64,000 bases of DNA from Chloroflexota bacterium. GTDB lineage: Bacteria; Chloroflexota; Anaerolineae; Anaerolineales; JBFLVL01. Positions within the stretch are counted from its first letter, which is position 1; every line of letters begins with the position of its first letter. The DNA is taken from positions 17,161 to 81,160 of the forward strand of contig JBFLVL010000014.1 of the NCBI GenBank assembly GCA_040758495.1. The letters run 5' to 3'. The position numbers and the translations under genes were made by a program. Of the stretch, positions 42,080 to 59,736 are shown in pieces. The notes below the pieces were generated by a model. That model had not been told where the DNA came from and did not search any database. It worked only from the letters and a program-made list of their open reading frames with translations.

Positions 42080-42238
42080 TCACTTCGGAGTTGCTTTGCA
42101 GGGGATATTTTTTAGTATAATGATTATCGGGGAGGTGGTTTTGTGCTAATCAGCCTAAGTTTTGTGCAACTCGGATGGATGTGGCGGCGCATTGAACTGA
42201 GCTTCCGCATTGGCTCTGCCCGCCACGTCAATCCTTAA

Positions 42239-42367
42239 ACGTTATGGGGTCATATTGATATTCGGACAACAGCAAGGTATACTCGAGTAAGTAAGCGTAC
42301 GTTGTCTGAAGTGCGCAGCCCGTTGGATAGTCCCCCGCTAGCAGGTGGGGAGGGAGAGGAAGGGTAA
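42239..42367 (+). pseudogene. C-terminal remnant of a tyrosine recombinase with an integron-integrase-like ending
   Basis: 42242-42364 translates to LWGHIDIRTTARYTRVSKRTLSEVRSPLDSPP... (Box II GH..TT..YT.V with the catalytic Tyr). An in-frame TAA lies at 42236-38, and no upstream coding remainder exists. Confidence 0.55.
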
Positions 42368-42462
42368 AGAGATAAGGGTGATAGTGAGCAAGTGCAAACT
42401 ATCAGGTGTTATTGCGTCATGAGCACTATCGCTGTGTTGGGCGGCCTGAAATACAGAGTGGT

Positions 42463-43035
42463 ATGAAGATTACAGGAAAGCATGTTGTACTAAGAGATGA
42501 AAAGAAAGAAAACGATAGTGACGATTTCTTCCATTGGCGGAACCTGGGAGAGTGGCAATATTATGATGAACCCGATGAAACATTCGAGAGCATAAGTCGG
42601 GAAAAATATGAGCAGCAGAGAAAAGAACGCAATCAAAAAACAAAGCCACCGATTTTGAATAGTCATACTTGGCAAATTGATACCCTTAAAGGTCAACATG
42701 TCGGTTGGGTAAATTATTATCAGCTTGATGAGCAATTGGGACAAGCGTTTGTAGGAATATGTCTACCAGAGGAAGGAACTTGGAATAAAGGATATGGCAC
42801 AGAAGCCCTAAATCTTCTGATAAATTACTTATTTCGTGAGATAGGATTGAAGAAAGTCAAGACAGCAACTTGGACTGGAAATAAACGAATGGTACGCTGT
42901 GCTGAAAAGTGTGGCTTTGAGAAATATATTCTAATGCCACATCGAGTAGAACACTCTGTTCGAGGTGAGCCGTTAGAAAGGATAGAATTTACTCTTACCT
43001 GTTCGGAGTGGTTATCACGGAAGACGAGAGAATAG
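42463..43035 (+). CDS. GNAT family N-acetyltransferase (RimJ/RimL-like)
   Basis: Acetyl-CoA motif-A-like region WNKGYGTEAL. A GTTGGGC box at 42436-42442 lies 20 nt upstream of the ATG. Confidence 0.8.
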   Translation: MKITGKHVVLRDEKKENDSDDFFHWRNLGEWQYYDEPDETFESISREKYEQQRKERNQKTKPPILNSHTWQIDTLKGQHVGWVNYYQLDEQLGQAFVGICLPEEGTWNKGYGTEALNLLINYLFREIGLKKVKTATWTGNKRMVRCAEKCGFEKYILMPHRVEHSVRGEPLERIEFTLTCSEWLSRKTRE

Positions 43036-43077
43036 CAGAGCAAAATGAGACAGACAAAGTTCAAATGTGAAAAGGCC

Positions 43078-43202
43078 GCCCAACCACACATGCAGGCGAC
43101 CGGGCTGGCGCCCGAGGGTAAGCGGCGCGATTTTAGGCGATTGGTTACGAGCAAAGGATGTCCAGAGCTACAAACGCCCGGCGCCTGATGTAAACGTTAA
43201 TA
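43078..43202 (+). repeat. attC-like site 1
   Basis: GCCCAAC...GTTAATA. Arms are ACAT[G]CAGGCG[A]CCGGGC versus reverse-complement ACAT-CAGGCG-CCGGGC. Ends 4 nt before the next ATG. Confidence 0.75.
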
Positions 43203-43206
43203 AATT

Positions 43207-44277
43207 ATGACAGAAAATGTTATTGATCTTACCGGATTTACTTTGCTTGATGTGTACGGCCTTGAACACATTGATGTCTCAGGTAATTTTTCGGAAGAAA
43301 AATTGGCACAGTTATTCATTGACGAATGGATACCATATTATGAGTGTCATAAATGTAGTCGAGTAGATTATTGCAAATACCCTCAACCAGTTTCGCCTGG
43401 CTCATACCGCATGATGGATATCCAGTGTGGTGTTGTCGTTGCTGGAATAAAAAATTTTGTGCGTTCAATTTTCCCGTTACTGAAGGAATTAGACAAAGTT
43501 GCCCTTCAAGGGATTCTAGATGGTGCTCATTATCTGACAAGATTTCTCTTTGATACTGAAATAAAAATTGGAAGTGCCATGGATTCAGCCTACATTGACT
43601 ATCTTGAAGATTTTGCTCCAGCGTTTTTTGGGCGGATTGCACATCTGCGCGATCATTTGAATAATATGAGTTCAGCTTTTCAGCACGTTCCCATATTGCA
43701 AGCAAAGAGAGGGGTTTTGTTTGTACAAGGGGAATCGGAACAAGCATTTGTCGAAAGATTGAAATTGTCTAGATTGGCATGGTTCTTAAATGTATATGTT
43801 GACTCATACAGAGGGGACGGCAGTCGTCGTTTACCACGAATCGAAATGTTATTAGAGAGATTTAATTCTCAGGGCTATAAGATATTCATACAGGGTGATG
43901 CTGATGGTGGTGAATCATCCATTTTTACAAATTTGATACAACGTGGTCTTGTAGAAGTGGAAAACACTTTCACTTTTGAATATGATTTCGAAACAGCCGT
44001 TCCAGATAAGTTAGCCTATGATGCTCTTAGAGAAATGGAATTGCTTAGCGATGTTTCATTTGAACAATATTTGATTGGGGTTGGACAAAGAGATAAATCA
44101 TTAGCACCGAGGTTGTTTAGTGCATTCGGAATCGATATAAACTCGATAAAGATACAATTCGCGCAAACCGTGGCCGATATAATAAATTGGAGTCAATGGA
44201 CATGGTGGAATGACGATGAATTTACCGAATCGGAATTAGGAAAATTCTTATTTTTTATTCGGAGCGTCAATTATTAG
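43207..44277 (+). CDS. orphan protein with a C-terminal TOPRIM-like (OLD-nuclease-type) region
   Basis: The ORF fills the cassette. VLFVQGESE (aa 170-178) and IQGDADGGES (aa 228-237) resemble the TOPRIM E...DxD. The N-terminus is Cys-rich (CHKC..C..C). Confidence 0.55.
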   Translation: MTENVIDLTGFTLLDVYGLEHIDVSGNFSEEKLAQLFIDEWIPYYECHKCSRVDYCKYPQPVSPGSYRMMDIQCGVVVAGIKNFVRSIFPLLKELDKVALQGILDGAHYLTRFLFDTEIKIGSAMDSAYIDYLEDFAPAFFGRIAHLRDHLNNMSSAFQHVPILQAKRGVLFVQGESEQAFVERLKLSRLAWFLNVYVDSYRGDGSRRLPRIEMLLERFNSQGYKIFIQGDADGGESSIFTNLIQRGLVEVENTFTFEYDFETAVPDKLAYDALREMELLSDVSFEQYLIGVGQRDKSLAPRLFSAFGIDINSIKIQFAQTVADIINWSQWTWWNDDEFTESELGKFLFFIRSVNY

Positions 44278-44288
44278 CTTAGCATTGC

Positions 44289-44414
44289 GCCTAACCCCAA
44301 TTGCACGGGACTCGCCTTCGGCTCTGGTACGCGGCGCAAAAGATGCTAATTTAGGTTACAATTGAATTGGCCGACAATGCAAGAGTCGGCGAGCCCGTGA
44401 ATTACCCGTTGAAA
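44289..44414 (+). repeat. attC-like site 2
   Basis: GCCTAAC...GTTGAAA. Arms are AATT[G]CACGGG[A]CTCGCC versus AATT-CACGGG-CTCGCC. Confidence 0.75.
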
Positions 44415-44587
44415 CTGTCGAAAAAGTAAGAAAAGAGGTCGAAAATAGTGCCGCTCAAGCACAAAATTCAGTGTTCTCGCCATGAATAAGGTATTATTCG
44501 ACAGTCTCGTTGGGCGCAGACGGTAGAATTTGCGCTATAATGGCAATGCACAATCTCCAACAACATGCTTCGTGAAGAAGGTATCTT

Positions 44588-44863
44588 TTGAGCAAGATTG
44601 GGCAAATTCAAGACCTCGTTCGCAATGGCTTATATTACCTCACCGAACACGCTGACGATGAAGCCATCGCAGACGAATTTGATATCTATGATGTGGAGCA
44701 AGGCATTCTTACAGGGAAGATTCGGAGAACATGGACAAAGGAAGGCAAATACGAAGTAGTGGGACTGGCATTGGATGGCCGCCCTATTGGCATCGTTTGC
44801 CGTATTACCCAAACAGGCAAAGTGCGTGTGATTACAGTTTATGAAGACAGACTCAAGCAATGA
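44588..44863 (+). CDS. DUF4258-like putative toxin
   Basis: 91 aa with a TTG start. The C-terminus ...KVRVITVYEDR is typical of DUF4258. Paired with a YgiT-type zinc-finger gene. Confidence 0.6.
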   Translation: MSKIGQIQDLVRNGLYYLTEHADDEAIADEFDIYDVEQGILTGKIRRTWTKEGKYEVVGLALDGRPIGIVCRITQTGKVRVITVYEDRLKQ

Positions 44864-44872
44864 AAGGGAAAA

Positions 44873-45115
44873 ATGATGAGTTTTTGGAAAGGCGAAGCAT
44901 GTGAATATTGCGGCGGGCCCATTGTTGAGAAGCGTGTGACATTGCATCGTAAGGTACACGGGCAATATGTGCTGCTCGAAAATGTGCCAGCAGGTGTATG
45001 TACTCAATGTGGCACACGTTACTATGCGGCGAACGTGCTGAAGACAATCGAAGAAAGTCTACGTGGGCGTCGCCAAGCAGAGCGCGAGGTACTTGTGCCT
45101 GTGTATTCGCTGTAG
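44873..45115 (+). CDS. YgiT-type zinc-finger protein (MqsA-like putative antitoxin)
   Basis: CEYCGG...GVCTQCG ribbon, 80 aa. Confidence 0.7.
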   Translation: MMSFWKGEACEYCGGPIVEKRVTLHRKVHGQYVLLENVPAGVCTQCGTRYYAANVLKTIEESLRGRRQAEREVLVPVYSL

Positions 45116-45127
45116 CTTGTGGAGTGC

Positions 45128-45254
45128 GCCCAACACTGCATGCAGGCGACGGGGCTACCGCCTCCCCCCCAGCGAAGGCTCTGGTCGTTCCGGCAAGTCT
45201 TGCCCGCAAAGGGGTCTTTAGCATCCGCCCCGCGCCTGATGCTTGCCGTTGAAA
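45128..45254 (+). repeat. attC-like site 3
   Basis: GCCCAAC...GTTGAAA. Arms are GCAT[G]CAGGCG[A]CGGGGC versus GCAT-CAGGCG-CGGGGC. Confidence 0.8.
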
Positions 45255-45289
45255 CGCTCTTCTTTAATTGAAAATATTTGGGGTGGGGG

Positions 45290-45318
45290 TTGACGTGTAA
45301 TTAGGTATCATATACAAT
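45290..45318 (+). promoter_or_regulatory. sigma70-like promoter of the PIN/RHH cassette
   Basis: TTGACG (45290-95), a 17-nt spacer, then TACAAT (45313-18). The ATG at 45325 is 7 nt downstream, with no SD sequence. Confidence 0.4.
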
Positions 45319-45324
45319 ACCACC

Positions 45325-45750
45325 ATGCCTGTACACCAAATCGTTGTTGATACTAACGTATTCGTTACTGCTTTGCGTTCCCAGTTTGGCGCATCGTATA
45401 AACTTTTATCGCTTATTGATAAGGGCCTCTACGAATTGAATTTGTCGGTTCCGTTAGTTCTTGAATATGAAGAAGTTGCCAAAAGAATGATTGGCGAAAT
45501 CTCTTTGAGTGAAAGTGAAATTGATGACATCCTTGATTTTGTCATTAGCAGATCAAACCGCTGGCATATCTTTTATCTATGGCGACCACAACTCAAAGAT
45601 CCCAGCGATGATATGGTGTTGGAATTAGCGGTTACAGCTAGCTGCAATTACATCATCACACACAACCTCAATGATTTCAAAGGAAGTGAGAAATTCGGTA
45701 TTAAGGCAATCACACCAAAAGCGTTTTTAGAAATGGTAGGTGAACTATGA
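45325..45750 (+). CDS. PIN-domain toxin
   Basis: VVDTNVFV N-terminus, and an acidic DD segment (KDPSDDMVLELAV) with the ITHN segment. Confidence 0.8.
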   Translation: MPVHQIVVDTNVFVTALRSQFGASYKLLSLIDKGLYELNLSVPLVLEYEEVAKRMIGEISLSESEIDDILDFVISRSNRWHIFYLWRPQLKDPSDDMVLELAVTASCNYIITHNLNDFKGSEKFGIKAITPKAFLEMVGEL

Positions 45751-45983
45751 GCACATTAAGTCTAAGACTTCCTGAGTCTTTACACAAATCTGCTCGTGAG
45801 TTAGCAGAAAAAGAAAATATATCGATCAACCAACTAATCACTCTGGCATTGGCGGAGAAACTTGCTGCATTAGGTGCAGAAGATTATTTAGAAGCGCGTG
45901 CAAAACGAGGAAGCAAGACAAAGTTCCGCAAGGCAATGTCGAAAGTAGCGAAAGTTGAACCTCCAGATTATGATCGATTGTAA
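45747..45983 (+). CDS. ribbon-helix-helix antitoxin
   Basis: LSLRLPESLHKSARELAEKENISINQLITLALAEKL. ATGA overlap with the PIN gene. Confidence 0.7.
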   Translation: MSTLSLRLPESLHKSARELAEKENISINQLITLALAEKLAALGAEDYLEARAKRGSKTKFRKAMSKVAKVEPPDYDRL

Positions 45984-46014
45984 ATAGACAAAGGAGTTTT
46001 ACAATACAAAAGCG

Positions 46015-46144
46015 TGCCAACACAGCGTGCACCGGACTCATGGGATTCGTCCCGCTAAATTGAGTTGGTTCTGGCTTTTGGGTTTACCGCTATAGTAACT
46101 TTATCCAAGTCCCACCCACGAGCCGGTAACGCCAGCCGTTGAAA
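46015..46144 (+). repeat. attC-like site 4
   Basis: tGCCAAC...GTTGAAA. Arms are GCGT[G]CACCGG[A]CTCATGGG versus GCGT-TACCGG-CTCGTGGG. Confidence 0.7.
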
Positions 46145-46236
46145 CTGTCGAAAAAGTGTGAAAAGGGGCAGAAAATAGTGGCGATAATGCCCAAGGTTCT
46201 GTATCCTCTTCGTAAGAATGCAGTATAGAGGCATCG

Positions 46237-46503
46237 ATGGCTAAATACAAACCCTACCGTTATGACCAATTGGTCATGATCCCCATCTCACTCCAAAATC
46301 AGCTCGAACCCGGGACGCTGGAATACACCATCAACGCATTGGTGGAGAACCATCTCGATTTGTCGGTGTTCGAGGAGCGACATCGCCACAGATGTGTACA
46401 TCCTGTGTGGGCTGATCGTGCTGGCCATCGTGATTGCCGGTTTCATCGTCCGACGGAGCGGGGTAGAAAGTTCGAGGTCAGCCTCAAGGGCTTTCTAAAA
46501 TAA
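46237..46503 (+). pseudogene. N-terminal remnant of an IS1182-like (DUF772-type) transposase
   Basis: MAKYKPYRYDQLVMIPISLQNQLEPGTLEYTINALVENHLDLSVFEER matches the N-termini of this transposase type (from memory). Homology is lost after ~48 aa. Confidence 0.55.
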
Positions 46504-46529
46504 GTGAAGCGGAGGAGGTCAGGTCAGAA

Positions 46530-47363
46530 ATGTTTGAGTTGCCAGAGTTTGTAACTTTAGCCAAACAGATAAATGACACCCTGAAAGGAAAGACCATCCT
46601 AAGAGGGCGTCTGGGAAACAGCCCCCACAAATTCGTCTGGTACAACAGGAGCCATGAAGAGTTCGAGCAGTTGACAAAAGGGAAGACAGTCGAAAAAGCG
46701 TGGGCCAAAGGAAAATGGCTCTTCATCCCGCTTGAGCCCGGATATGTGCTGCTGCTAGGTGAATGTGGGGGCAAGGTGCTGTATCATCCTCCAGAGGCTG
46801 AGATTCCGAATAAGTATCATCTGTATATCTCATTCGAAGACGGCTCTTCCCTCACCGCCACCACCCAAATGTGGGGAGCCATGGAACTCTACGAAAAAGG
46901 AGAAGAGCAAAACCGACAGTATGTCAAAGATATGAAAACCACGCCGATAGAGTCCGGGTTCACCTTTGACTATCTCTGTTCCCTCATAGATGGTCTTGTG
47001 GAGGGAGAGAAGCGGAGCGTAAAGTCGTTGTTGACACAAGACCAAATCATACCAGGGCTGGGAAATGCAATTGCTCAAGATATTCTTTTCCAAGCCCGTC
47101 TGCACCCCAAACACCCAATATGCGAACTCACCATGGGGCAGAGGGGAGCATTGTACAACGCAATTTTGAACATCGTTGGAGAGGTCATAGAGAAGGGCGG
47201 CCGACATGACGAATATGACCTGTATAACAACCGAGGGAAATACATCCGCATTATGGACAAGAACGCGGTTGGTCGTCCCTGTCCCGAATGTGGGTGTGAA
47301 ATAGAGAAGATGCAGTATTTGGGAGGAACATGCTATTTGTGTCCAAATTGCCAGCAATGTTGA
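46530..47363 (+). CDS. Fpg/Nei-family DNA glycosylase-like protein with atypical N-terminus
   Basis: MFELPEF N-terminus (Phe where the catalytic Pro2 is expected), H2TH (IPGLGNAIAQDILFQARLHP) and a C-terminal CxxC..CxxC. Strong GGAGGAGG RBS. Confidence 0.75.
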   Translation: MFELPEFVTLAKQINDTLKGKTILRGRLGNSPHKFVWYNRSHEEFEQLTKGKTVEKAWAKGKWLFIPLEPGYVLLLGECGGKVLYHPPEAEIPNKYHLYISFEDGSSLTATTQMWGAMELYEKGEEQNRQYVKDMKTTPIESGFTFDYLCSLIDGLVEGEKRSVKSLLTQDQIIPGLGNAIAQDILFQARLHPKHPICELTMGQRGALYNAILNIVGEVIEKGGRHDEYDLYNNRGKYIRIMDKNAVGRPCPECGCEIEKMQYLGGTCYLCPNCQQC

Positions 47364-47534
47364 CAAGATTGATCATATAAAAGTAACGCCTGGGGGTAAA
47401 ATATTAATGTTTGAAGCTTTTATTGGATTGCACGAATCCATTGAAAATCAAACCTTTTCCATTTTCCCTGCATCACCTCAACTACACAACCATGAATACA
47501 ACCAGCAAGGAAGAACTTGCTTACAGAGGTCACG

Positions 47535-48470
47535 ATGAAAAGTCAAAAGATTATTTTCCCCCTACTGACCCTGCTCCTGGTAGCCCTGGCCTGCAATTTC
47601 CCCTCTTATGACGAGTGGTGTCCCAATCCTTTCAACCCCGTCTGTGCAGCCTTGGAGGATGACACCCCCTCGACGCAACCGCCTCCGGACACAGATGAAA
47701 TAGTTATAGGCGTAGACCAAAAATACGGATACCTGACCAACCTGTACGTAGAACCAGGGACAGGGTACGGCCCGTTCCGAGCCACCCTTCACTACGGCGA
47801 AGGGAAGGAGACCAGTTATGCCACCTGCGCCTATGCCAAAAAAGACGATCTGGCTTTCGTTCCCGTCATCATCGGTGTGCTTACCCTGAACCCGGGCAGC
47901 GGGCTTATGATGGGGTCGCAGACCATGGATTTCAACGAAAAACGACCAGCGCAGTACCTGGCTTATTGCACCAGCGGAGAGCAAAGGCTGGAACAGAGTT
48001 TTGCGGTGGTCTCTCCGTACGTTGGCCAATACGAATGTGAATCCTGCTTTTCCGAGTCCTGGGCAACGGATGTAGATATGGTGGCCGAGGGGCCCCGCTC
48101 AATGGGACGCAACCTGGTGAAAATCACGGTTGATGAGAACGGCAACGTCACCGCAGGGTACATTTTTTATGAGATTTATGGCACACCCCCGAACTATTGC
48201 ACCATCACCTACAATTCTTTCGAGTCCGGGAAAGTCACCGGGGCGGTCAACCACGACACGAAAGAGTTGATCGTTGACTTCCTCGATTGCAAAGCAGTCT
48301 ATGAACGTAGCGGCGGCAGCCAGTGCGATCCTCCTGAGGTAAGCACGGGCGGAGCAACTCGGTTTTTCTTCCAGTTCAATGAGCAGGGTGATCTGATGCT
48401 CTGCAAACCTTTCGAGACCGGACAGAGTTGTATAGAAAATCCAATTGCTGTGTTGTTGAAACGAAAGTAA
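47535..48470 (+). CDS. secreted/lipoprotein-like Cys-rich hypothetical protein
   Basis: Signal peptide MKSQKIIFPLLTLLLVALAC and many Cys. The stop overlaps the next ATG (TAATG). Confidence 0.5.
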   Translation: MKSQKIIFPLLTLLLVALACNFPSYDEWCPNPFNPVCAALEDDTPSTQPPPDTDEIVIGVDQKYGYLTNLYVEPGTGYGPFRATLHYGEGKETSYATCAYAKKDDLAFVPVIIGVLTLNPGSGLMMGSQTMDFNEKRPAQYLAYCTSGEQRLEQSFAVVSPYVGQYECESCFSESWATDVDMVAEGPRSMGRNLVKITVDENGNVTAGYIFYEIYGTPPNYCTITYNSFESGKVTGAVNHDTKELIVDFLDCKAVYERSGGSQCDPPEVSTGGATRFFFQFNEQGDLMLCKPFETGQSCIENPIAVLLKRK

Positions 48471-49366
48471 TGGCTTCATTTGATGATGATCTAACCAGCA
48501 CCATTATAGGGATGGAATGCGCAGCTCTCGATCGCTGGGGCAAGGGTGATCCCTCTGGGTTCCTAGAAATTTGCGCTCCTGACGTCGTGTATTCTGACCC
48601 AAATCTTGAACGGCGGATTGATGGTCGCGATGCTTTAAGCAAATACTATGATGGGATTAGAGGGAAGGTATCCCTCCAACGGTACAAATTATTGGCCGAC
48701 TCGTCAACCGGCTCCTTGTTCGAGGCAGATGTGTATGACCTCGACCTGTTCGATACTGACGCCAGCATGGTCGCCGCGCTTCAGGCACAAGGGTACCGGG
48801 TAATTTGTTACATCTCGGTCGGCTCTTGGGAGGACTGGCGTCCCGACGCCGGGCAGTTCCCACCCGAAGTCATCGGAAATGATTACGAAGGCTGGCCTGG
48901 CGAGAAGTGGCTGGACATCCGCTCCCTCGAAAAACTCGCTCCCATTTTGCGTGCTCGCCTTGACCTGTGCGCGGCCAAAGGCTTCGACGCTGTCGAACCA
49001 GACAACATGGATGGCTTCACCAATGACACCGGCTTTCCGCTCACTGCAGCCGATCAACTCCGATTCAACATATGGCTGGCAGAGGAGGCCCACCAGCGCG
49101 GCCTTTCCATTGGTCTTAAAAATGACCCCGATCAAGCCGCAGAACTGGAGCCTTACTTCGATTGGGCTTTGACAGAAGACTGTTTTGCCGATGGCTGGTG
49201 CGAACAAATGCTGCCCTTCATTGAGGCGGGCAAGGCCGTTCTGGCCGCCGAATACACCGATACCGGAGTCTCACTGGGCGAAATCTGCCCCTTGGCGGCG
49301 CAAATGCAATTCAGCGTTATCCTCAAGAACCGTGATCTCGATGCCTATCGCGCCACGTGTCCATAA
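48470..49366 (+). CDS. GH114-like endo-alpha-1,4-polygalactosaminidase domain fused to an NTF2/SnoaL-like N-terminal fragment
   Basis: VICYISVGSWEDWRPD...GWPGEKWLDIR...GFDAVEPDNMDGF...GLKND is the GH114 pattern. No signal peptide. Confidence 0.7.
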   Translation: MASFDDDLTSTIIGMECAALDRWGKGDPSGFLEICAPDVVYSDPNLERRIDGRDALSKYYDGIRGKVSLQRYKLLADSSTGSLFEADVYDLDLFDTDASMVAALQAQGYRVICYISVGSWEDWRPDAGQFPPEVIGNDYEGWPGEKWLDIRSLEKLAPILRARLDLCAAKGFDAVEPDNMDGFTNDTGFPLTAADQLRFNIWLAEEAHQRGLSIGLKNDPDQAAELEPYFDWALTEDCFADGWCEQMLPFIEAGKAVLAAEYTDTGVSLGEICPLAAQMQFSVILKNRDLDAYRATCP

Positions 49367-49379
49367 ACCAGCGGCCAAA

Positions 49380-51425
49380 ATGAAAAGTTGTTTCCCCTTT
49401 CTAACCCTTCTCATTTTGTTCATTGCCGCCTGCGATCTGTCTGCGCCGGAAAGTGAGACTATTGAGCCGACAGAAGATGCGGCCACGTTGTCGTCCGATG
49501 CCCAGCCTGCTTTTGGCGGCGAAACCCGATCCGATGGCGCCATCCGGCTAACCACCCCGCCTGCCGGGGCCAGCGACCAGAACCCTGCCTTTTCGCCGGA
49601 TGGTTCCCAAATTGTGTTTACCCGCTTTGACAACGGTTATAACGCTGGCCCGGCCGGGTTATTTTTGCTCGACCTTACGACCTTTGCTGTCACTCGCCTG
49701 ACCCCTTCGGAGGATCAGGATAATGTCAATTTACCGGGGTCCGCCTGGAATGGGATCAATGCCCGCATTGTCTTTGCCTCCGACCGGATGGAGGCCGACG
49801 ACCTGTGGTGGGTTGCCCCAGATGGTTCTGATTTCAGCCGCATCACCACCCACAGCGGCCCGCCCTGGTATATTGAACCCTCCTGGGCGCCAGATGGCCA
49901 GTGGATTGTCTTCGAGGCCGACGCCGATCTGCCCGACGACGCGCAGCAGGGTAGTATCTGGAAGGTGCGCGCCGATGGCTCCGGTTTGACCGTACTCACC
50001 GACGGGCCCGGTGGAGGCATGGACGACCGGCAGCCCAACTGGTCCCCCGCAGGCGACCGCATCCTTTTCCAGCGCCGTATCCCCGGCAGTGATGACTGGA
50101 ACCTGTACACCATCAACCCTGACGGCAACGGCCTCCAGCAGGTAACTTTCTCGCCGGCCAGCGATACCGACGCCAGTTGGTCCCCCGATGGCCGCTGGAT
50201 TGTGTACTCGTCTGATCACGGCGGGCTGCCGGTCCCGAACATTTTTATCATCCCGGCGGATGGCGGTGAACCGGTTCGCGCCACTTTCGATGCGACCCAG
50301 GAAGATGGAGCGCCTTCCTGGTCGCCCGATGGAAAATGGATCGCCTTTGAATCGCATCCGGGACAAAACGAAGAGACCCCGTCCGCTTTGTGGCGAATTG
50401 CAGCGCCGGACCTTGGGGCAGTGGAATACTCCGAAACGGCCGCGCCGCCCGAAGGGAGTCTGAATCGCCTGGCGTTCGTGCGCCACTGGCTGTATCTGAT
50501 CGACGTGAATCTTGAGCCGGAGACGGTCACCCTCATCGAAGACTCCGGCTACGATCTGGTGGTGCTCGACTTCATTCCCTCCGAAGTCAACAATACGGAC
50601 TACCCTATGGCCGAGGTGATCGCCCGCCTGCACAACGCGCCGCACTCGAAATTGGTGCTGGCCTATATCGACATCGGCCAGGCCGAGAGTTATCGCACCT
50701 ACTGGCAGCCGGGCTGGGGCATCGGCAACCCCGATTGGATCGCGGGCGCCGACCCCGACGGCTGGGAAGGCAACTTTCCGGTAGCCTACTGGCGCGACGA
50801 GTGGCGGGACATCTGGCTGGGAGCGGACGGCTACCTGCAGGCCACTGTGGACAGCGGCTTCGACGGCGTCTATCTCGACTGGGTGGAAGCCTACTCGGAT
50901 GAGAACGTGATCGCCATCGCGGAGCAGGATGGCGTGGATGCGCAGCGGGAAATGATCCGCTGGGTGGGCGACATCGCCGCGTTCGGGCGCGCCCGCCGTC
51001 CCGGCTTCGTCGTTATCGCCCAGAACGCCGCCGAACTGGCCGGGTTGGATAACTATGTGGCAATCATCGACGCCATCGCTCAGGAACAGGTGTGGTTCGA
51101 CGGCGCGGCCGACAACGACCCCCCCGGCGACTGCCCGTTGCCGCGCACTGAGGCCGAGGTGGACACGCCCGCCTATTACGCGAGCCTCTCCCCGCCGTGC
51201 CGCGTGCAGTACGATCAATACCCCGACAGTACCCTGCATGTGAGCAGCGAAGCCTACTTGCGCGATTTGAAACTAGCGCACAGCAAAGGGCTGATCATCT
51301 TCACGGTGGATTATGCTCTGGAACCGGAGAATGTCGCCTGGGTCTACGAGACATCGCGCGGGCTGGGGTTTGTGCCGTTTGCGGGCAGCCGGGCGCTCGA
51401 TCAGTATGTCGAAGTATTCAAGTAA
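49380..51425 (+). CDS. lipoprotein: PD40/TolB-like beta-propeller + TM1410-type glycosidase-like TIM barrel
   Basis: Lipobox LFIAAC. Five or more FSPDG/WSPDG repeats. C-terminal LAYIDIGQAESYRTYW...GFDGVYLDWVEAY. Confidence 0.7.
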   Translation: MKSCFPFLTLLILFIAACDLSAPESETIEPTEDAATLSSDAQPAFGGETRSDGAIRLTTPPAGASDQNPAFSPDGSQIVFTRFDNGYNAGPAGLFLLDLTTFAVTRLTPSEDQDNVNLPGSAWNGINARIVFASDRMEADDLWWVAPDGSDFSRITTHSGPPWYIEPSWAPDGQWIVFEADADLPDDAQQGSIWKVRADGSGLTVLTDGPGGGMDDRQPNWSPAGDRILFQRRIPGSDDWNLYTINPDGNGLQQVTFSPASDTDASWSPDGRWIVYSSDHGGLPVPNIFIIPADGGEPVRATFDATQEDGAPSWSPDGKWIAFESHPGQNEETPSALWRIAAPDLGAVEYSETAAPPEGSLNRLAFVRHWLYLIDVNLEPETVTLIEDSGYDLVVLDFIPSEVNNTDYPMAEVIARLHNAPHSKLVLAYIDIGQAESYRTYWQPGWGIGNPDWIAGADPDGWEGNFPVAYWRDEWRDIWLGADGYLQATVDSGFDGVYLDWVEAYSDENVIAIAEQDGVDAQREMIRWVGDIAAFGRARRPGFVVIAQNAAELAGLDNYVAIIDAIAQEQVWFDGAADNDPPGDCPLPRTEAEVDTPAYYASLSPPCRVQYDQYPDSTLHVSSEAYLRDLKLAHSKGLIIFTVDYALEPENVAWVYETSRGLGFVPFAGSRALDQYVEVFK

Positions 51426-51441
51426 TACGGTCAATGGGGCG

Positions 51442-52422
51442 ATGAATATGAATAGAAAAACTATAGTGCTCCTGGCAATCATTTTTGTTCAATTCACTGC
51501 AATGATTGCGTGCAATGCTGCTGCTAGGAGGAGTACGCCAACTGCCAGTGATGAGATCATTTACGAACAAATATCAAGGGAAACAAAAATCCCTGTCAAT
51601 GCAGTCAAGATGTTGCCTGAAACGGATGCTCATCCGCCAATTCTGCTGTCCGACGAATTTGAAAACCCCATACCTCTACCTGGCAAGGTAAACACGGCGG
51701 GAGCCGAAGATTCGCCCTTCATTATGCCTGACGGAAACACTTTATATTTCTTCTTCACGCCCGATGTGTCCATTCCGGCTGAAAAGCAATTGTTTGACGG
51801 AGTTACTGGGATTTATGTATCGAACAGAATTGAAGGGGAATGGGCCAATCCGGCAAGGCTATGGCTGCAAGACTCTGGTAAATTGGCATTGGATGGTTGC
51901 GAGTTTGTCTTGGGCGACAGCATGTGGTTTTGTTCAAGCCGAGAAGGCTATACGGGTATCAACTGGTTTACCGCCAAATACCAGGAGGGCACGTGGAAAA
52001 ACTGGAGCAAAGTAGACTTCACTTCTGATTTCAAGGTGGGAGAGTTGCATATCACCAGTGATGGTACTGAGCTATATTTTGGCTCGGATAGACCGGGCGG
52101 GCAGGGAAAGATGGACATCTGGTTGTCGAAGAAGGTCAACGAGGAATGGCAAGAGCCAATAAACGTTGCCAGCGTCAATACGCCGGATGATGAAGGTTGG
52201 CCGGCGATAAGTTTCGATGGGGAGGAGTTGTGGTTCTATAGGAACTATGGTATATGGCGGTCGAAGAAACAGAATGGGGAATGGCAAGAGGCCGAGCAAA
52301 TAGTTTCAACGCTGGCTGGGGAACCTTCGCTTGATAAGGATGGCAATCTCTATTTTGTCCATTATTATTATGTTGATGACCAGATGATTGAAGCGGACAT
52401 TTACGTTTCATATAGGAAGTAG
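51442..52422 (+). CDS. PD40 (WD40-like beta-propeller) repeat protein, secreted
   Basis: Signal/TM segment MNMNRKTIVLLAIIF. Repeats MPDGNTLYF, SDGTELYFGSDRPGG.G..DIW and FDGEELWF. Confidence 0.6.
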   Translation: MNMNRKTIVLLAIIFVQFTAMIACNAAARRSTPTASDEIIYEQISRETKIPVNAVKMLPETDAHPPILLSDEFENPIPLPGKVNTAGAEDSPFIMPDGNTLYFFFTPDVSIPAEKQLFDGVTGIYVSNRIEGEWANPARLWLQDSGKLALDGCEFVLGDSMWFCSSREGYTGINWFTAKYQEGTWKNWSKVDFTSDFKVGELHITSDGTELYFGSDRPGGQGKMDIWLSKKVNEEWQEPINVASVNTPDDEGWPAISFDGEELWFYRNYGIWRSKKQNGEWQEAEQIVSTLAGEPSLDKDGNLYFVHYYYVDDQMIEADIYVSYRK

Positions 52423-52429
52423 AAGGGCA

Positions 52430-52558
52430 GCCCAACCAGCGCATGGGGCCGATTTGGCCTACTGGGGCCCAAAGACGGAGTTGGTTGGCATCATGGGCAC
52501 TCTGGTAGACGACCAAGTCTTCAATAACCCGGCCAAACGGCTCATGCGAACGTTAGGT
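52430..52558 (+). repeat. attC-like site 5
   Basis: GCCCAAC...GTTAGGT. Arms are GCAT[G]GGGCCG[A]TTTGGCC versus GCAT-GAGCCG-TTTGGCC. Starts 8 nt after a stop codon. Confidence 0.8.
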
Positions 52559-57146: not shown

Positions 57147-57284
57147 GAGCAACAGTTGCCAAGGAGGTGACCTACGGGGAAGCTCCTCTGCGTTCAGCGA
57201 TAATCACCGCGAAAAATCACGATTGGTTATGAGCAAAGTCGTACCAGGGTCAAACCCGGCCCGCCGGTGAAACAAACGTTGGGC
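57147..57284 (+). repeat. attC-like site 6 (degenerate arms)
   Basis: GAGCAAC...GTTGGGC. Carries the central module CCTACGGGGAAGCTCCTCTGCGTTCAGCGATAA shared with sites 7-9. Confidence 0.5.
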
Positions 57285-57361
57285 TGCAGTAAAATGTCTG
57301 GTGTAAGTTTATTGATAAATCCTTAATCATTCCATCTAGTGGACGAAGGAGAGAATCTCTT

Positions 57362-57916
57362 ATGAAAGCTACAGAAATTCTAATGGAAGAACACCGTGTG
57401 ATCGAACGAGTATTAGCTTCTATAGAAACAGCAGCGAGGCGCATTTCGGCAGGTCAAGAAGTTCCCAACGATTTCTTTCTCAGGACGGCTGATTTCATTA
57501 AAGGTTTTGCCGATGGTTGTCATCACAAAAAGGAAGAAGGTGTGCTTTTTGTGGCATTGGTGGAAAATGGTATGTCACCAGAGCAAGGACCAGTTGCTGT
57601 GATGTTAGCGGAACACGAAGAGGGGAGACGCCTAACGCGGGCAATGCAAGAAGGAGCTAAGCGCATGCAGGAAGGCGACCCTACTGCTATTGCACAGGTA
57701 TCTCAAAATGCGCTTGGTTATGTAACCCTGTTACGGCAACACATCCAGAAGGAAGATAACGTACTTTTTCCGATGGCCGACCAGATCATCCCTATTGAGC
57801 AACAAGACCAGTTAGCCGCAGCATTCGATCAGATTGAGCATGAGGAGACCGGCGAGGGTATTCACGAAAAGTATCTTGGGCTGGCCACAGAATTAGAGAA
57901 AGCGGTGGCAGCATAA
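57362..57916 (+). CDS. hemerythrin-domain protein
   Basis: MEEHRVIE, CHHKKEE, LAEHEEG and HIQKEDNVLFP (HHE cation-binding repeats). Confidence 0.8.
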   Translation: MKATEILMEEHRVIERVLASIETAARRISAGQEVPNDFFLRTADFIKGFADGCHHKKEEGVLFVALVENGMSPEQGPVAVMLAEHEEGRRLTRAMQEGAKRMQEGDPTAIAQVSQNALGYVTLLRQHIQKEDNVLFPMADQIIPIEQQDQLAAAFDQIEHEETGEGIHEKYLGLATELEKAVAA

Positions 57917-57943
57917 ACAAGCGGCAACACAAAACGCACGGCT

Positions 57944-58101
57944 GCCCAACACTGAGTGCACCGGAAGGGAGTAACGCCCCGAGGGTGCCCTACGGGGATG
58001 CTCCACTGCGTTACGCGATAAGCAGCGTGAATCGCCAATGTTGGCCTGGGTCGAGCGGCAGTCGGAGCCAAAACGCCCGGCTGCTGAGGTAACCGTTGGG
58101 C
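57944..58101 (+). repeat. attC-like site 7
   Basis: Perfect GCCCAAC...GTTGGGC boxes. The 5' arm GAGT[G]CACCGG[A]AGGG resembles site 4. About 120 bp is nearly identical to 58800-58918. Confidence 0.6.
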
Positions 58102-58114
58102 GGCTTAATACAAA

Positions 58115-58142
58115 TCACCCCTCGCACATCTGAGGGGTGATC
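58115..58142 (-). terminator. hairpin downstream of the inverted cassette genes
   Basis: TCACCCCTC-gcacatc-GAGGGGTGA, followed on the minus strand by a T-rich stretch. Confidence 0.45.
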
Positions 58143-58164
58143 GAGATAAAATGTAAAGTTGAAG

Positions 58165-58542
58165 CTATGCTGCTACAGGAATTGGTGGTTTCTCGATAAA
58201 AGTAATCGGCATTGTTTCGGCGAGATTCGGCGTATAAGCCAATACTTTCAATATTTGGTTCACTGGTGGATTTTTTATGATTTCAAGTACAGTTTCTTGC
58301 CATTCTGGTTCCAAGTCATTCAAACCGGTCAACGGAAAACTGCGAGGGCCTAAATTCGTTAGTTGAATCAGAACCGAAAAATCCATCAGTGTAAGACCAA
58401 TAGCGCGTTTTTCTGCTTTATTAAATCGCAGTAATATATTATCGTTTAGTTCGACGGCAGTGGTAGCTTTTTCACCGGGAGAGAATGAAATATATAAAAC
58501 GTCTACTTCTTTATCGTAAGAATAAACTGGTTCTTGGTTCAT
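58165..58542 (-). CDS. DUF2283-like protein (putative antitoxin-like partner)
   Basis: YDKEVDVLYISFSPGE...AIGLTLMDFS is the DUF2283 pattern. On the opposite strand to the array. Confidence 0.6.
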   Translation of the reverse strand: MNQEPVYSYDKEVDVLYISFSPGEKATTAVELNDNILLRFNKAEKRAIGLTLMDFSVLIQLTNLGPRSFPLTGLNDLEPEWQETVLEIIKNPPVNQILKVLAYTPNLAETMPITFIEKPPIPVAA

Positions 58543-58545
58543 TTC

Positions 58546-58773
58546 TTATCCTTTTAGCTGGATATGTTTGAAAAAGGCTGTAGCAACATAGTTATTGGGT
58601 ATAGTTCGCCCTTCTTCGTCAATATCGTAACCGAACAAGACAATTACAACAATGTGGTTCACGTCGTCTGGCAAATCATCAAAGGTATGATAATAACGAT
58701 ATTTTCGCGGGTTGAGAGGTTCTTGTCGTCTACGACCTTTTTCGTCGGGGTTTACCCCTGCGGGGCACCCCAC
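58546..58773 (-). CDS. small ORF upstream of the DUF2283 gene (start uncertain)
   Basis: Only a GTG at 58773 opens the frame, and it lies inside the attC-like repeat. 3 nt gap to the next gene. No motif. Confidence 0.3.
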   Translation of the reverse strand: MGCPAGVNPDEKGRRRQEPLNPRKYRYYHTFDDLPDDVNHIVVIVLFGYDIDEEGRTIPNNYVATAFFKHIQLKG

Positions 58774-58918
58774 TGCGTGGGACAGGCAGGTTGCCCTGTA
58801 GGTCCCCTACGGGGATGCTCCACTGCGTTCCGCGATAAGCGGAGCGAATTGCCAATGCTGGCCTGGGTCGAGCGGCAGTCGCAGCCAACCCGCCCGGCTG
58901 CTGAGGTAACCGTTGGGC
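58767..58918 (+). repeat. attC-like site 8 (5' box degenerate)
   Basis: The 3' two-thirds are nearly identical to site 7 and end in GTTGGGC (58912-18). The 5' box reads ACCCCAC. Confidence 0.45.
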
Positions 58919-59090
58919 GGCCCAAGCAATCAATCTTCTGTTACAATTGAAATTACGGGACGACCGTGCTGGCCTGCGGCGCAGGCTTCAAACCTGTGAT
59001 GCTACTTCGCCTGTAAAGCAAGTAGATGTGGGTTGGATTCCAAATCCCGTCTCTATATCTACCTACTTCAACACAGCAGGAAGGTGCGAT

Positions 59091-59447
59091 ATGTCCAACG
59101 AATCACCTCTCGCCAATGCAGTCATATTGATAACCAGAGAAGGAATGGGGTCTGCCGATGCGGCGCTACAGCACAAACTCCTTGATATCTACTTGAGGCT
59201 TCTGCTGGAGAGCGACTCATTGCCTGCCGCCATTTGTTTCTATACAGATGGGGTCAAGCTCGTGGTTGAAGGATCGCCGCTTCTGGAGCGACTCTCTCAA
59301 ATCGAGAAACGGGGTGTCCGTCTGATTGTCTGCTCGACGTGTCTCAACTACTTTGAGTTGACGGAAAGGGTATGGGTTGGTATTGTGGGAGGCATGCCAG
59401 ATATTATTGAAGCCCAGACCAGAGCTAGCAAAGTCATCACACTCTGA
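59091..59447 (+). CDS. DsrE/YedF-C-terminal-like sulfur/selenium relay domain protein
   Basis: VILITREGMG..., ICFYTDGVKLVVEGS and CSTCLNYFEL resemble the DsrE-like domain of YedF. AGGAAGG RBS. Confidence 0.65.
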   Translation: MSNESPLANAVILITREGMGSADAALQHKLLDIYLRLLLESDSLPAAICFYTDGVKLVVEGSPLLERLSQIEKRGVRLIVCSTCLNYFELTERVWVGIVGGMPDIIEAQTRASKVITL

Positions 59448-59507
59448 ATGAAAAGGTTATGCTGCGCGCCGATGGCAAATGCAGCCAGTCTGTAGAGAAC
59501 AGAGGCC

Positions 59508-59595
59508 GGCCAACCCACGCTGCGCCCGACCGGGCTGTCGCCCGAGGTCCCCTACGAGGATGCTCGACTGCGTTCCGCGATGCGCGGAGCGAAAA
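59508..59595 (+). repeat. truncated attC-like site 9 (5' arm + central module only)
   Basis: GGCCAAC CCACGCTGCGCCCGACCGGGC... resembles the site 1 arm, followed by CCCCTACGAGGATGCTCGACTGCGTTCCGCGAT. No 3' arm or GTTRRRY box. Confidence 0.4.
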
Positions 59596-59736
59596 ATGGC
59601 AAAAGGTGAAATATTTTGTCTTCGTGAGCATATAGGTATAATTGAAAAGTGGAGGTAGACGGCTCAATTTAAAGGGTTGTATAAACTAAGGGTTGGAGAT
59701 TATCGTGTCGTGTATACAGTCGAAAGTACCGAATAG
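59596..59736 (+). pseudogene. RelE/ParE-like toxin remnant
   Basis: 59659-59733 reads TAQFKGLYKLRVGDYRVVYTVESTE* (the RelE/ParE core is ..yklRvGdYRviY). The upstream part is only readable in other frames. Confidence 0.45.

Follow-up and report, generated by a model that had tools for sequence, protein, structure and literature searches.

A short cassette array of an uncultured Chloroflexota bacterium with five probable integron attC sites, a C in L'' and no adjacent integrase

In integron attC sites, the extrahelical bases are by definition carried by the R''/L'' arm (5' on the top strand, 3' on the recombined bottom strand); the base in L'' is 'usually a G', the distal base is 'a conserved T' and the two are spaced by 6 bp (PMC5027507), a spacing needed for efficient recombination (PMC5027507; PMC7439510). 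[quoted passage not shown] Here we analysed a window of 64,000 nucleotides from a Chloroflexota bacterium of the order Anaerolineales (assembly GCA_040758495.1, contig JBFLVL010000014.1, positions 17,161 to 81,160 of the forward strand), in which five bulged-stem sites follow one another on the + strand. We are confident in reading them as integron attC sites, each of the five closing a cassette on its 3' side, in a chromosomal array without an adjacent integrase, that is a CALIN, and probably a sedentary integron that has decayed or been split. Hairpins of conserved structure and variable sequence with bulges 6 bp apart are of little significance by themselves, since this is the textbook definition of attC.

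Among described systems, the repeats (VCR) of Vibrio cholerae (~130 nt; VchIntIA structure PDB 2A3V) resemble the window sites in length, in their RYYYAAC...GTTRRRY boxes and in their unpaired central spacer. The resemblance extends to the bulges of the R''/L'' arm, which are spaced by 6 bp and of which the distal one is T on the bottom strand, to a long and variable terminal structure with loop parts conserved among the sites of one genome and, as in sedentary integrons, to tandem sites placed after promoterless open reading frames (ORFs) with toxin-antitoxin cassettes in the array. By contrast, the window sites have C and not G in L'', they have two extrahelical bases compared to three in VCR2, and no integrase adjoins their array as it does in sedentary integrons such as that of the VCR; their spacers (3-4 and 4-5 nt) also differ from the 5-6 nt of usual attC sites and their L stem is of 4 bp instead of 3 bp. 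The same T and C, 6 bp apart, are carried by the T-N6-C derivatives of attCdfrA1 (Larouche and Roy 2011, PMC3053210), which are however short, laboratory-altered sites of mobile integrons, whereas the window sites are natural, long and from an uncultured bacterium. As in the CALIN of Cury et al. (2016, PMC4889954), there are at least two attC sites, intI genes lie on other contigs and none of the cassettes is a resistance cassette; unlike them, the array is headed by a recombinase pseudogene stub that is Xer-like and not a canonical intI. Finally, the array of one relative (genome G029) shares with the window the subfamily of site 4 (GCGT[G]CACCTG[A]C ... CAGGTA-ACGC), the C-type L'' bulge and the site length, but it belongs to a complete classical integron headed by IntI, whereas that of the window is short and heterogeneous and lacks such a head.

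Anatomy and covariation of the five sites

Positions are those of the window; C-numbers designate contigs of the same 3.17-Mb genome and G-numbers genomes of relatives. The five sites share one geometry, made of an RYYYAAC box, a spacer of 3-4 nt, 4 bp, a bulged G, 6 bp, a bulged A and a stem of 5-8 bp, followed by a loop of ~70 nt, three return stems that are paired throughout, a spacer of 4-5 nt and a GTTRRRY box. Site 1 (43078-43202, + strand, 125 nt), at the end of a GNAT cassette and with its crossover G at 43196, is composed of R'' GCCCAAC, the spacer CAC and the arm ACAT[G43092]CAGGCG[A43099]CCGGGC, and returns through GCCCGG-CGCCTG-ATGT and the spacer AAAC to R' GTTAATA. Site 2 (44289-44414, + strand, 126 nt; crossover G 44408) ends the cassette of a 356-aa protein with R'' GCCTAAC, the spacer CCC, the arm AATT[G44303]CACGGG[A44310]CTCGCC, the return arm GGCGAG-CCCGTG-AATT, the spacer ACCC and R' GTTGAAA. 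Site 3 (45128-45254, + strand, 127 nt; crossover G 45248), which closes a cassette encoding a DUF4258 and a zinc-ribbon antitoxin-like protein, has R'' GCCCAAC, the spacer ACT, the arm GCAT[G45142]CAGGCG[A45149]CGGGGC, the return arm GCCCCG-CGCCTG-ATGC, the spacer TTGCC and again R' GTTGAAA. None of these three sites shows a mismatch across the 15-bp core of the geometric scan described below.

Site 4 (46015-46144, + strand, 130 nt; crossover G 46138), at the end of a PIN / ribbon-helix-helix (RHH, HicB-like) cassette, reads R'' TGCCAAC, spacer ACA and arm GCGT[G46029]CACCGG[A46036]CTCATGGG, then return arm CCCACGAG-CCGGTA-ACGC, spacer CAGCC and R' GTTGAAA. On the top strand it has two mismatches (C.A and A.C; scan score 2.0), both pairing as G.T wobbles on the bottom strand; its subfamily also includes sites at C8:5267 and C34:1351 together with the 35-site array of G029. 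Site 5 (52430-52558, + strand, 129 nt; crossover G 52552), which terminates a composite cassette of 6.4 kb, is the weakest of the five; it has R'' GCCCAAC, the spacer CAGC, the arm GCAT[G52445]GGGCCG[A52452]TTTGGCC, the return arm GGCCAAA-CGGCTC-ATGC, the spacer GAAC and R' GTTAGGT, and its single top-strand G.T wobble (scan score 0.5) is, seen on the bottom strand, a C.A mismatch. All five sites keep AAC and GTT unchanged. The R'' 7-mer matches RYYYAAC in 4/5 sites, the exception being the TGCCAAC of site 4, and among the R' 7-mers only GTTAGGT fits GTTRRRY fully, GTTGAAA (three sites) and GTTAATA being off at one or two positions. The total lengths, 125-130 nt, are inside the 57-141 bp range expected of attC sites.

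An earlier sequence-only reading had proposed five bulged-stem sites on the + strand, with G and A bulges exactly 6 bp apart on the RYYYAAC-proximal arm and a short unpaired spacer after the box. The sites were found at these places in the sequence, in a fixed-geometry scan and with two covariance models; the spacing and the arm hold for 5/5 sites, the spacer is of 3-4 nt with 4 bp between it and the G, and no match was bulged on the other arm. The scanner imposes a fixed attC geometry, leaves the bulge bases free and counts mismatch units. At up to 3 units on both strands of the window it returned exactly the five sites and no others, and at up to 1.5 units on the whole genome (3.17 Mb) it returned 22 matches compared to 1, 3 and 1 in three Markov-shuffled genomes.

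Covariance-model scoring, which had been named as a check, gave the same answer with both models run on the 64 kb with filters off. The first model (R1) was seeded with six sites of the genome having equal spacer length, sites 3 and 4 included, after which Infernal aligned the rest; this seeding was adopted because a MAFFT alignment of all 19 sites misregistered the return arms where spacer lengths differ. R1 found only the five sites and none on the - strand, the untrained sites 2, 1 and 5 scoring 40.5, 37.3 and 19.6 bits, respectively. The second model (R2) was trained exclusively on 55 attC sites from four further genomes of the order; in three of these genomes the sites were shown to lie beside a canonical IntI. 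It recovered these five intervals again, and only on the + strand, with 87.3 bits for site 4 (E 2.8e-19), 43.0 for site 3 (E 1.7e-8), 31.4 for site 1 (E 1e-5), 30.4 for site 2 and 19.2 for site 5 (E 0.01).

Across the five sites, 97.8% of the stem cells are paired, compared to 25-35% in controls with the partners slid by 1-3 columns, and 12 of the 16 stem pairs have changed on both sides, values that none of 500 shuffles matched. The alignment used here was fitted to the structure, a bias in favour of covariation of which the slid controls and the foreign-trained R2 are independent. Since the arms of different sites are identical at just 5-14 of 16 stem positions (8-14 among sites 1-3), the description of one geometry kept in different sequences is correct. 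The compensatory covariation put forward from the sequence was thus found, and the covariation counts together with the covariance models trained on other genomes support that the sites are structurally selected.

Folding of both strands as DNA was the other check. The bulged hairpin of site 1 is present in both DNA folds and the full hairpin of site 4 is the minimum-energy fold on the - strand only, because both of its mismatches are G.T wobbles there; for site 5, the first bulge may alternatively be drawn as a 2x1 (GG/T) internal loop.

Intergenic hairpins placed after genes and having modest whole-site folding z-scores could also be palindromes that resemble attC sites, such as REP-like elements (repetitive extragenic palindromes), terminators or the ends of miniature inverted-repeat transposable elements. 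We regard this as extremely improbable. The arms differ while their pairing is kept, a pattern that repeats multiplied by copying do not show; AAC and GTT do not vary and the bulges sit at identical places, on one arm only; and the matches fall on one strand with a model built from the arrays of other genomes, three of them beside a canonical IntI. Moreover, inspection of the sequence found no T run 3' of the five hairpins.

Strand choice, the C in L'' and the integrases

The cassette ORFs are all on the + strand, each upstream of its site, and it is the 5' (R''/L'') arm that bears the bulges. The orientation rule was tested on 80 loci flanking intI genes in other organisms of many phyla, where attC sites were on the strand opposite to intI in 20/20 matches of the strand-specific model and in 36/39 matches of the geometric scan. 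The + strand is therefore the top strand, as had been proposed, and on the bottom strand C is the bulge in L'' and T the one six bp farther from the R box, an arrangement (T-N6-C) found in 5/5 sites.

By analogy with studied attC sites, the bottom (- strand) copy of each site would fold, in single-stranded DNA, into a hairpin inside which the AAC/GTT and L boxes would pair, leaving unpaired on the R''/L'' arm the C in L'' and the T six base pairs farther up. A tetramer of IntI would bind this hairpin, and the flipped-out bases opposite the cleaved AAC would mark the bottom strand and thereby fix the orientation of the cassette. Cleavage would separate A from C in the bottom-strand R' box, that is at G/TT on the top strand, and would lead to cassette excision (attC x attC) or insertion (attI x attC). 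The likely enzymes are the products of the two complete intI genes located elsewhere in the genome, and we infer from the analysis that recombination acts on the sites or did so until recently.

The sequence-only reading had noted that one bulge might differ from the canonical G. This holds, as the L'' base on the bottom strand is C in 5/5 sites and G in 0/5, the distal base being T in 5/5; the novelty that was implied does not, since T-N6-C sites have already been assayed and are common. Such sites were built in 2011 and were excised by IntI1 as well as T-N6-G sites, and better than these by IntI2*179E, IntI3 and SonIntIA; the natural attCdfrA1 also bears a C, as A-N7-8-C (PMC3053210). Because the literature says 'usually' and T-N6-C is functional, the identity of the L'' base is typical of attC sites but does not define them. 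Among relatives, the L'' base is C in 35/35 sites of G029 and in the sites of G025 and G003, and G in 14/15 sites of G026. At the 80 intI loci, an unbiased scan counted 18 C-type and 14 G-type sites, and in the model alignment C-type sites were found beside canonical IntIs of Chloroflexota, cyanobacteria, Gammaproteobacteria, Acidobacteriota and Verrucomicrobiota. In the genome of the window itself, the first bulge of the top strand is predominantly G, C, A and T also occurring, and the second is nearly always A. The C-type L'' bulge is thus a known, functional and widespread variant, and not a new one.

We also considered whether the integrase has a special pocket for the bulged C. The IntI encoded on C35 keeps the residues that hold the T in VchIntIA and IntI1 (P235, H243 and H244) and, in IntI1-type form, those that contact the L'' base (K149, R161, K212, Y213 and W222). 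As IntI1-type residues are present at every contact position and C-type sites lie beside canonical IntIs in several phyla, a special pocket was rejected. The array-wide C of G029 (35/35) and the nearly array-wide G of G026 (14/15) could mean that the IntI lineages of the order have co-evolved with the base at L''.

Two complete intI genes were detected in the genome with TIGR02249 (474 and 457 bits, for a cut-off of 265 bits), at the contig ends of C35 and C42, and the genome has ~27 attC sites in total, on ten contigs; the contig of the window gave no TIGR02249 match above the cut-off. C35 starts in a repeat common to C27 and C17, and C42 ends in a repeat common to C20. The region upstream of one of the intI genes (C42:18870-19040) is duplicated at C20:1-171 with 99.4% identity, C20 bearing merely a 50-codon N-terminal intI fragment with a stop codon. 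C42 and C20 break off at one and the same position, so that the assembly leaves the attI side ambiguous. The nearest IntI proteins, with ~65-67% identity, are those of Chloroflexi/Anaerolineae assemblies and of filamentous cyanobacteria. In 41 genomes of the order, that of the window included, the attC family is present in 17 and a canonical IntI in 19. G029 (G029:C1:1-40000) has a classical sedentary integron with a divergent IntI that contains a family-specific insert; the 35 attC sites found there are on the strand opposite to IntI and all have G..A on the top strand. A second classical integron, with a divergent canonical IntI, is present in G026 (G026:C2:650001-670000).

Cassettes, decayed sites and the head of the array

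The five cassettes are all in the + orientation. Cassette 1 (42437-43196) encodes the GNAT acetyltransferase (Pfam Acetyltransf_3, E 8e-20), whose true start is probably the ATG at 42463; its left boundary is the G/TT at 42436/42437, the point where four copies of the sequence at the array head, hereafter the platform, diverge. Cassette 2 (43197-44408) encodes the 356-aa protein, which has no Pfam match. Cassettes 3 and 4 are toxin-antitoxin pairs, the antitoxin side of cassette 3 being only weakly matched. Cassette 3 (44409-45248) is made of a conserved leader, the gene of the DUF4258 protein (44588-44863) and that of an 80-aa zinc-ribbon protein (44873-45115) with weak matches to YokU/MqsA-antitoxin-like families; cassette 4 (45249-46138) encodes a PIN toxin (45325-45750; PIN_3, E 1e-19) and a HicB/RHH antitoxin (45747-45983; HicB, E 3e-8). 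Cassette 5 (46139-52552) is a composite of 6.4 kb comprising a leader, a transposase stump, an Fpg/Nei-like gene, a 317-aa ORF without Pfam match, a GH114 gene, a PD40+GH114 gene and a PD40 gene; neither R1 nor R2, with filters off, revealed a credible internal attC within it. Cassettes 1-4 have a GC content of 41-45%, compared to 57-63% for the housekeeping flank upstream of them and 57-64% for the composite cassette 5.

The leader extends over ~75-110 bp from the R' box (GTTGAAACTGTCGAAAAAGT...) and is 92-99% identical at the starts of cassettes on at least six contigs. Copies are at 44406-44516 and 46131-46208 of the window and at C8:3561-3665, C8:5388-5498, C34:7053-7160, C39:21330-21438 and C41:15286-15393, and no Rfam match was obtained for it. 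At the start of the composite cassette, positions 46237-46390 encode the N-terminal stump of a transposase without Pfam match, and the segment 46163-46384 that covers it is 98% identical to the final 222 bases of contig C3. We tentatively call this stump IS1182-like.

Downstream of site 5, two restriction-modification gene pairs precede four decayed attC-like relics (57147-57285, 57944-58103, ~58790-58922 and 59508-59600), whose arms no longer pair. The relics still show RYYYAAC and/or GTTGGGC, their loops are homologous to that of site 1, and the last one is a 5' half-site reading CGCT[G]CGCCCG[A]CCGGGC. A module of ~129 bp is common to three of them, and part of it is dispersed on many contigs. 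The sites near the head of the array are thus intact and the farther ones weak or decayed, a pattern that fits insertion at the head with decay at the tail and fits a fossil array equally well. A search of 41-61 kb with Rfam gave nothing relevant and no tRNA genes were found; a sub-threshold Rfam match to tRNA-Sec at 58955-59050 (31.8 bits for a gathering score of 47), where ARAGORN reported none, is probably due to chance.

Upstream of the array, an aminotransferase gene is followed by a hairpin repeat (42173-42234), a recombinase stub (42239-42331) and the platform, which extends to G42436. The stub is on the same strand as the cassettes; 31 of its codons match the IntI model (E 5e-4), ~41 are homologous to a gene on C17, and its left edge coincides with a GTTAT motif inside the intact gene. 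This intact gene (C17:68900-70000) encodes a Xer-like recombinase of 366 aa, and the stub together with ~100 nt beyond it is 96% identical to the 3' end of the gene. Copies of the head are found at 42161-42437 in the window and at C7:60070-60350, C7:64412-64700 and C17:69874-70071. All four are alike up to one G (42436 in the window) and then diverge into GTTGGGC, GTTGGGT, ATTGGGC and GTTAGCC, so that the divergence point resembles, judged from the sequence, an attI crossover. On C17, a 647-aa ORF and an attC site come after the intact gene, on the same strand.

These observations raise the question of whether the sites are attC-like substrates of the Xer-like tyrosine recombinase, in a second type of integron platform whose recombinase is co-oriented with its cassettes. 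The near-identity of the stub and platform with the end of the C17 gene, the common divergence point of the four copies and the same-strand order on C17 speak for it. The protein itself speaks against it. Its match to TIGR02249 is split into two pieces (95 and 89 bits), without model positions 177-235, and, judged by eye, its beta-4,5 His-His hairpin is replaced by a Xer-type loop; in VchIntIA, elements of the alpha-I2 / beta-4,5 type, absent from the C17 protein, are those that hold the extrahelical bases. No close homologue was found in 40 relatives, where the best match has 39% identity (range 35-39%), although, of the 41 genomes, 17 have the attC family and 19 have a canonical IntI. In addition, G029 has the same attC subfamily and the same C bulge adjoining a canonical, divergent IntI, and the platform junction could equally be a secondary site reused by canonical IntIs. 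We therefore hold it quite unlikely that the sites are substrates of this enzyme in a platform of a second type; the proposal that the array was assembled at, and its C-bulge sites used now or formerly by, a Xer-like recombinase without the alpha-I2 / beta-4,5 elements is likewise an unlikely one.

Among four homologue loci of the Xer-like recombinase in relatives, one has an attC site nearby, in divergent orientation, which proves nothing. It is a match of 28.6 bits at G007:C22 1677-1804, ~120 nt upstream of a homologue with 35% identity and diverging from it, on a contig of 2.2 kb that is too short to interpret.

It should also be considered that the sites are fossils, that is former attC sites in an inert array, the structure of which would persist for want of time to decay. 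The destroyed recombinase gene at the head of the array and the lack of an integrase in the window agree with this, as do the insertion sequence (IS) stump and the multi-gene mosaic of cassette 5, the weakness of site 5 and the four downstream sites (57147-59600) that no longer fold as attC hairpins. However, sites 1-3 have perfect 15-bp cores although their arms share 8-14 of 16 positions, from which we argue that pairing has been maintained, and the two mismatches of site 4 turn into wobbles on the strand that would be recombined. Furthermore, two intact intI genes are present in the genome, and IntI can in principle act in trans on CALIN cassettes (PMC4889954). An inert array is consequently a possibility to be kept in mind, though a doubtful one.

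Weight of the evidence and meaning

Several results weigh against five attC sites in a recombining array. Whole-site folding z-scores are weak (-0.07 to -2.6), which is of no use as a test because the ~70-nt loop dominates them; site 5 is marginal (~19 bits), and the attC-like sites beyond it are decayed. No intI is present within the 64-kb window, the array being headed by the Xer-like stub and not by a canonical intI, and end overlaps did not connect either intI contig with an array. Two cassette proteins, looked up as exact sequences, had no identical copy elsewhere. Finally, the 27 sites of the genome show no bottom-strand folding advantage (bottom minus top, +0.3 +/- 3.0 kcal/mol), no excess of G.T in their stems (11 versus 12 wobbles) and no purine skew. 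They differ in this from VCR-type sites and from the published set of mobile-integron attC sites, which has a bottom-strand folding advantage, an excess of G.T and a purine skew (PMC5027507). In the G029 array, one inherited C.A/G.T position favours the bottom strand, in 48 cases versus 4.

A CALIN comprises at least two attC sites without a nearby intI, and the window has five attC sites and no intI; it has no intI adjoining the array, as a complete integron would. Because no integron integrase adjoins the sites, we assign the array to the CALIN. Its head, with the Xer-like stub and the G/TT junction, is a more unusual object than the sites themselves; were the array the work of the Xer-like recombinase, this would make it an integron-like platform whose recombinase lacks the domain believed to recognise the extrahelical bases.

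As attC sites of a CALIN, the five sites provide a clean natural example of T-N6-C outside Proteobacteria. Without a folding or purine bias, the choice of strand would rest here on the position of the bulges and the asymmetry of the spacers alone. The uniformly C-type or G-type arrays that relatives carry beside canonical integrases could be natural material for the question of whether integrases adapt to the L'' base.

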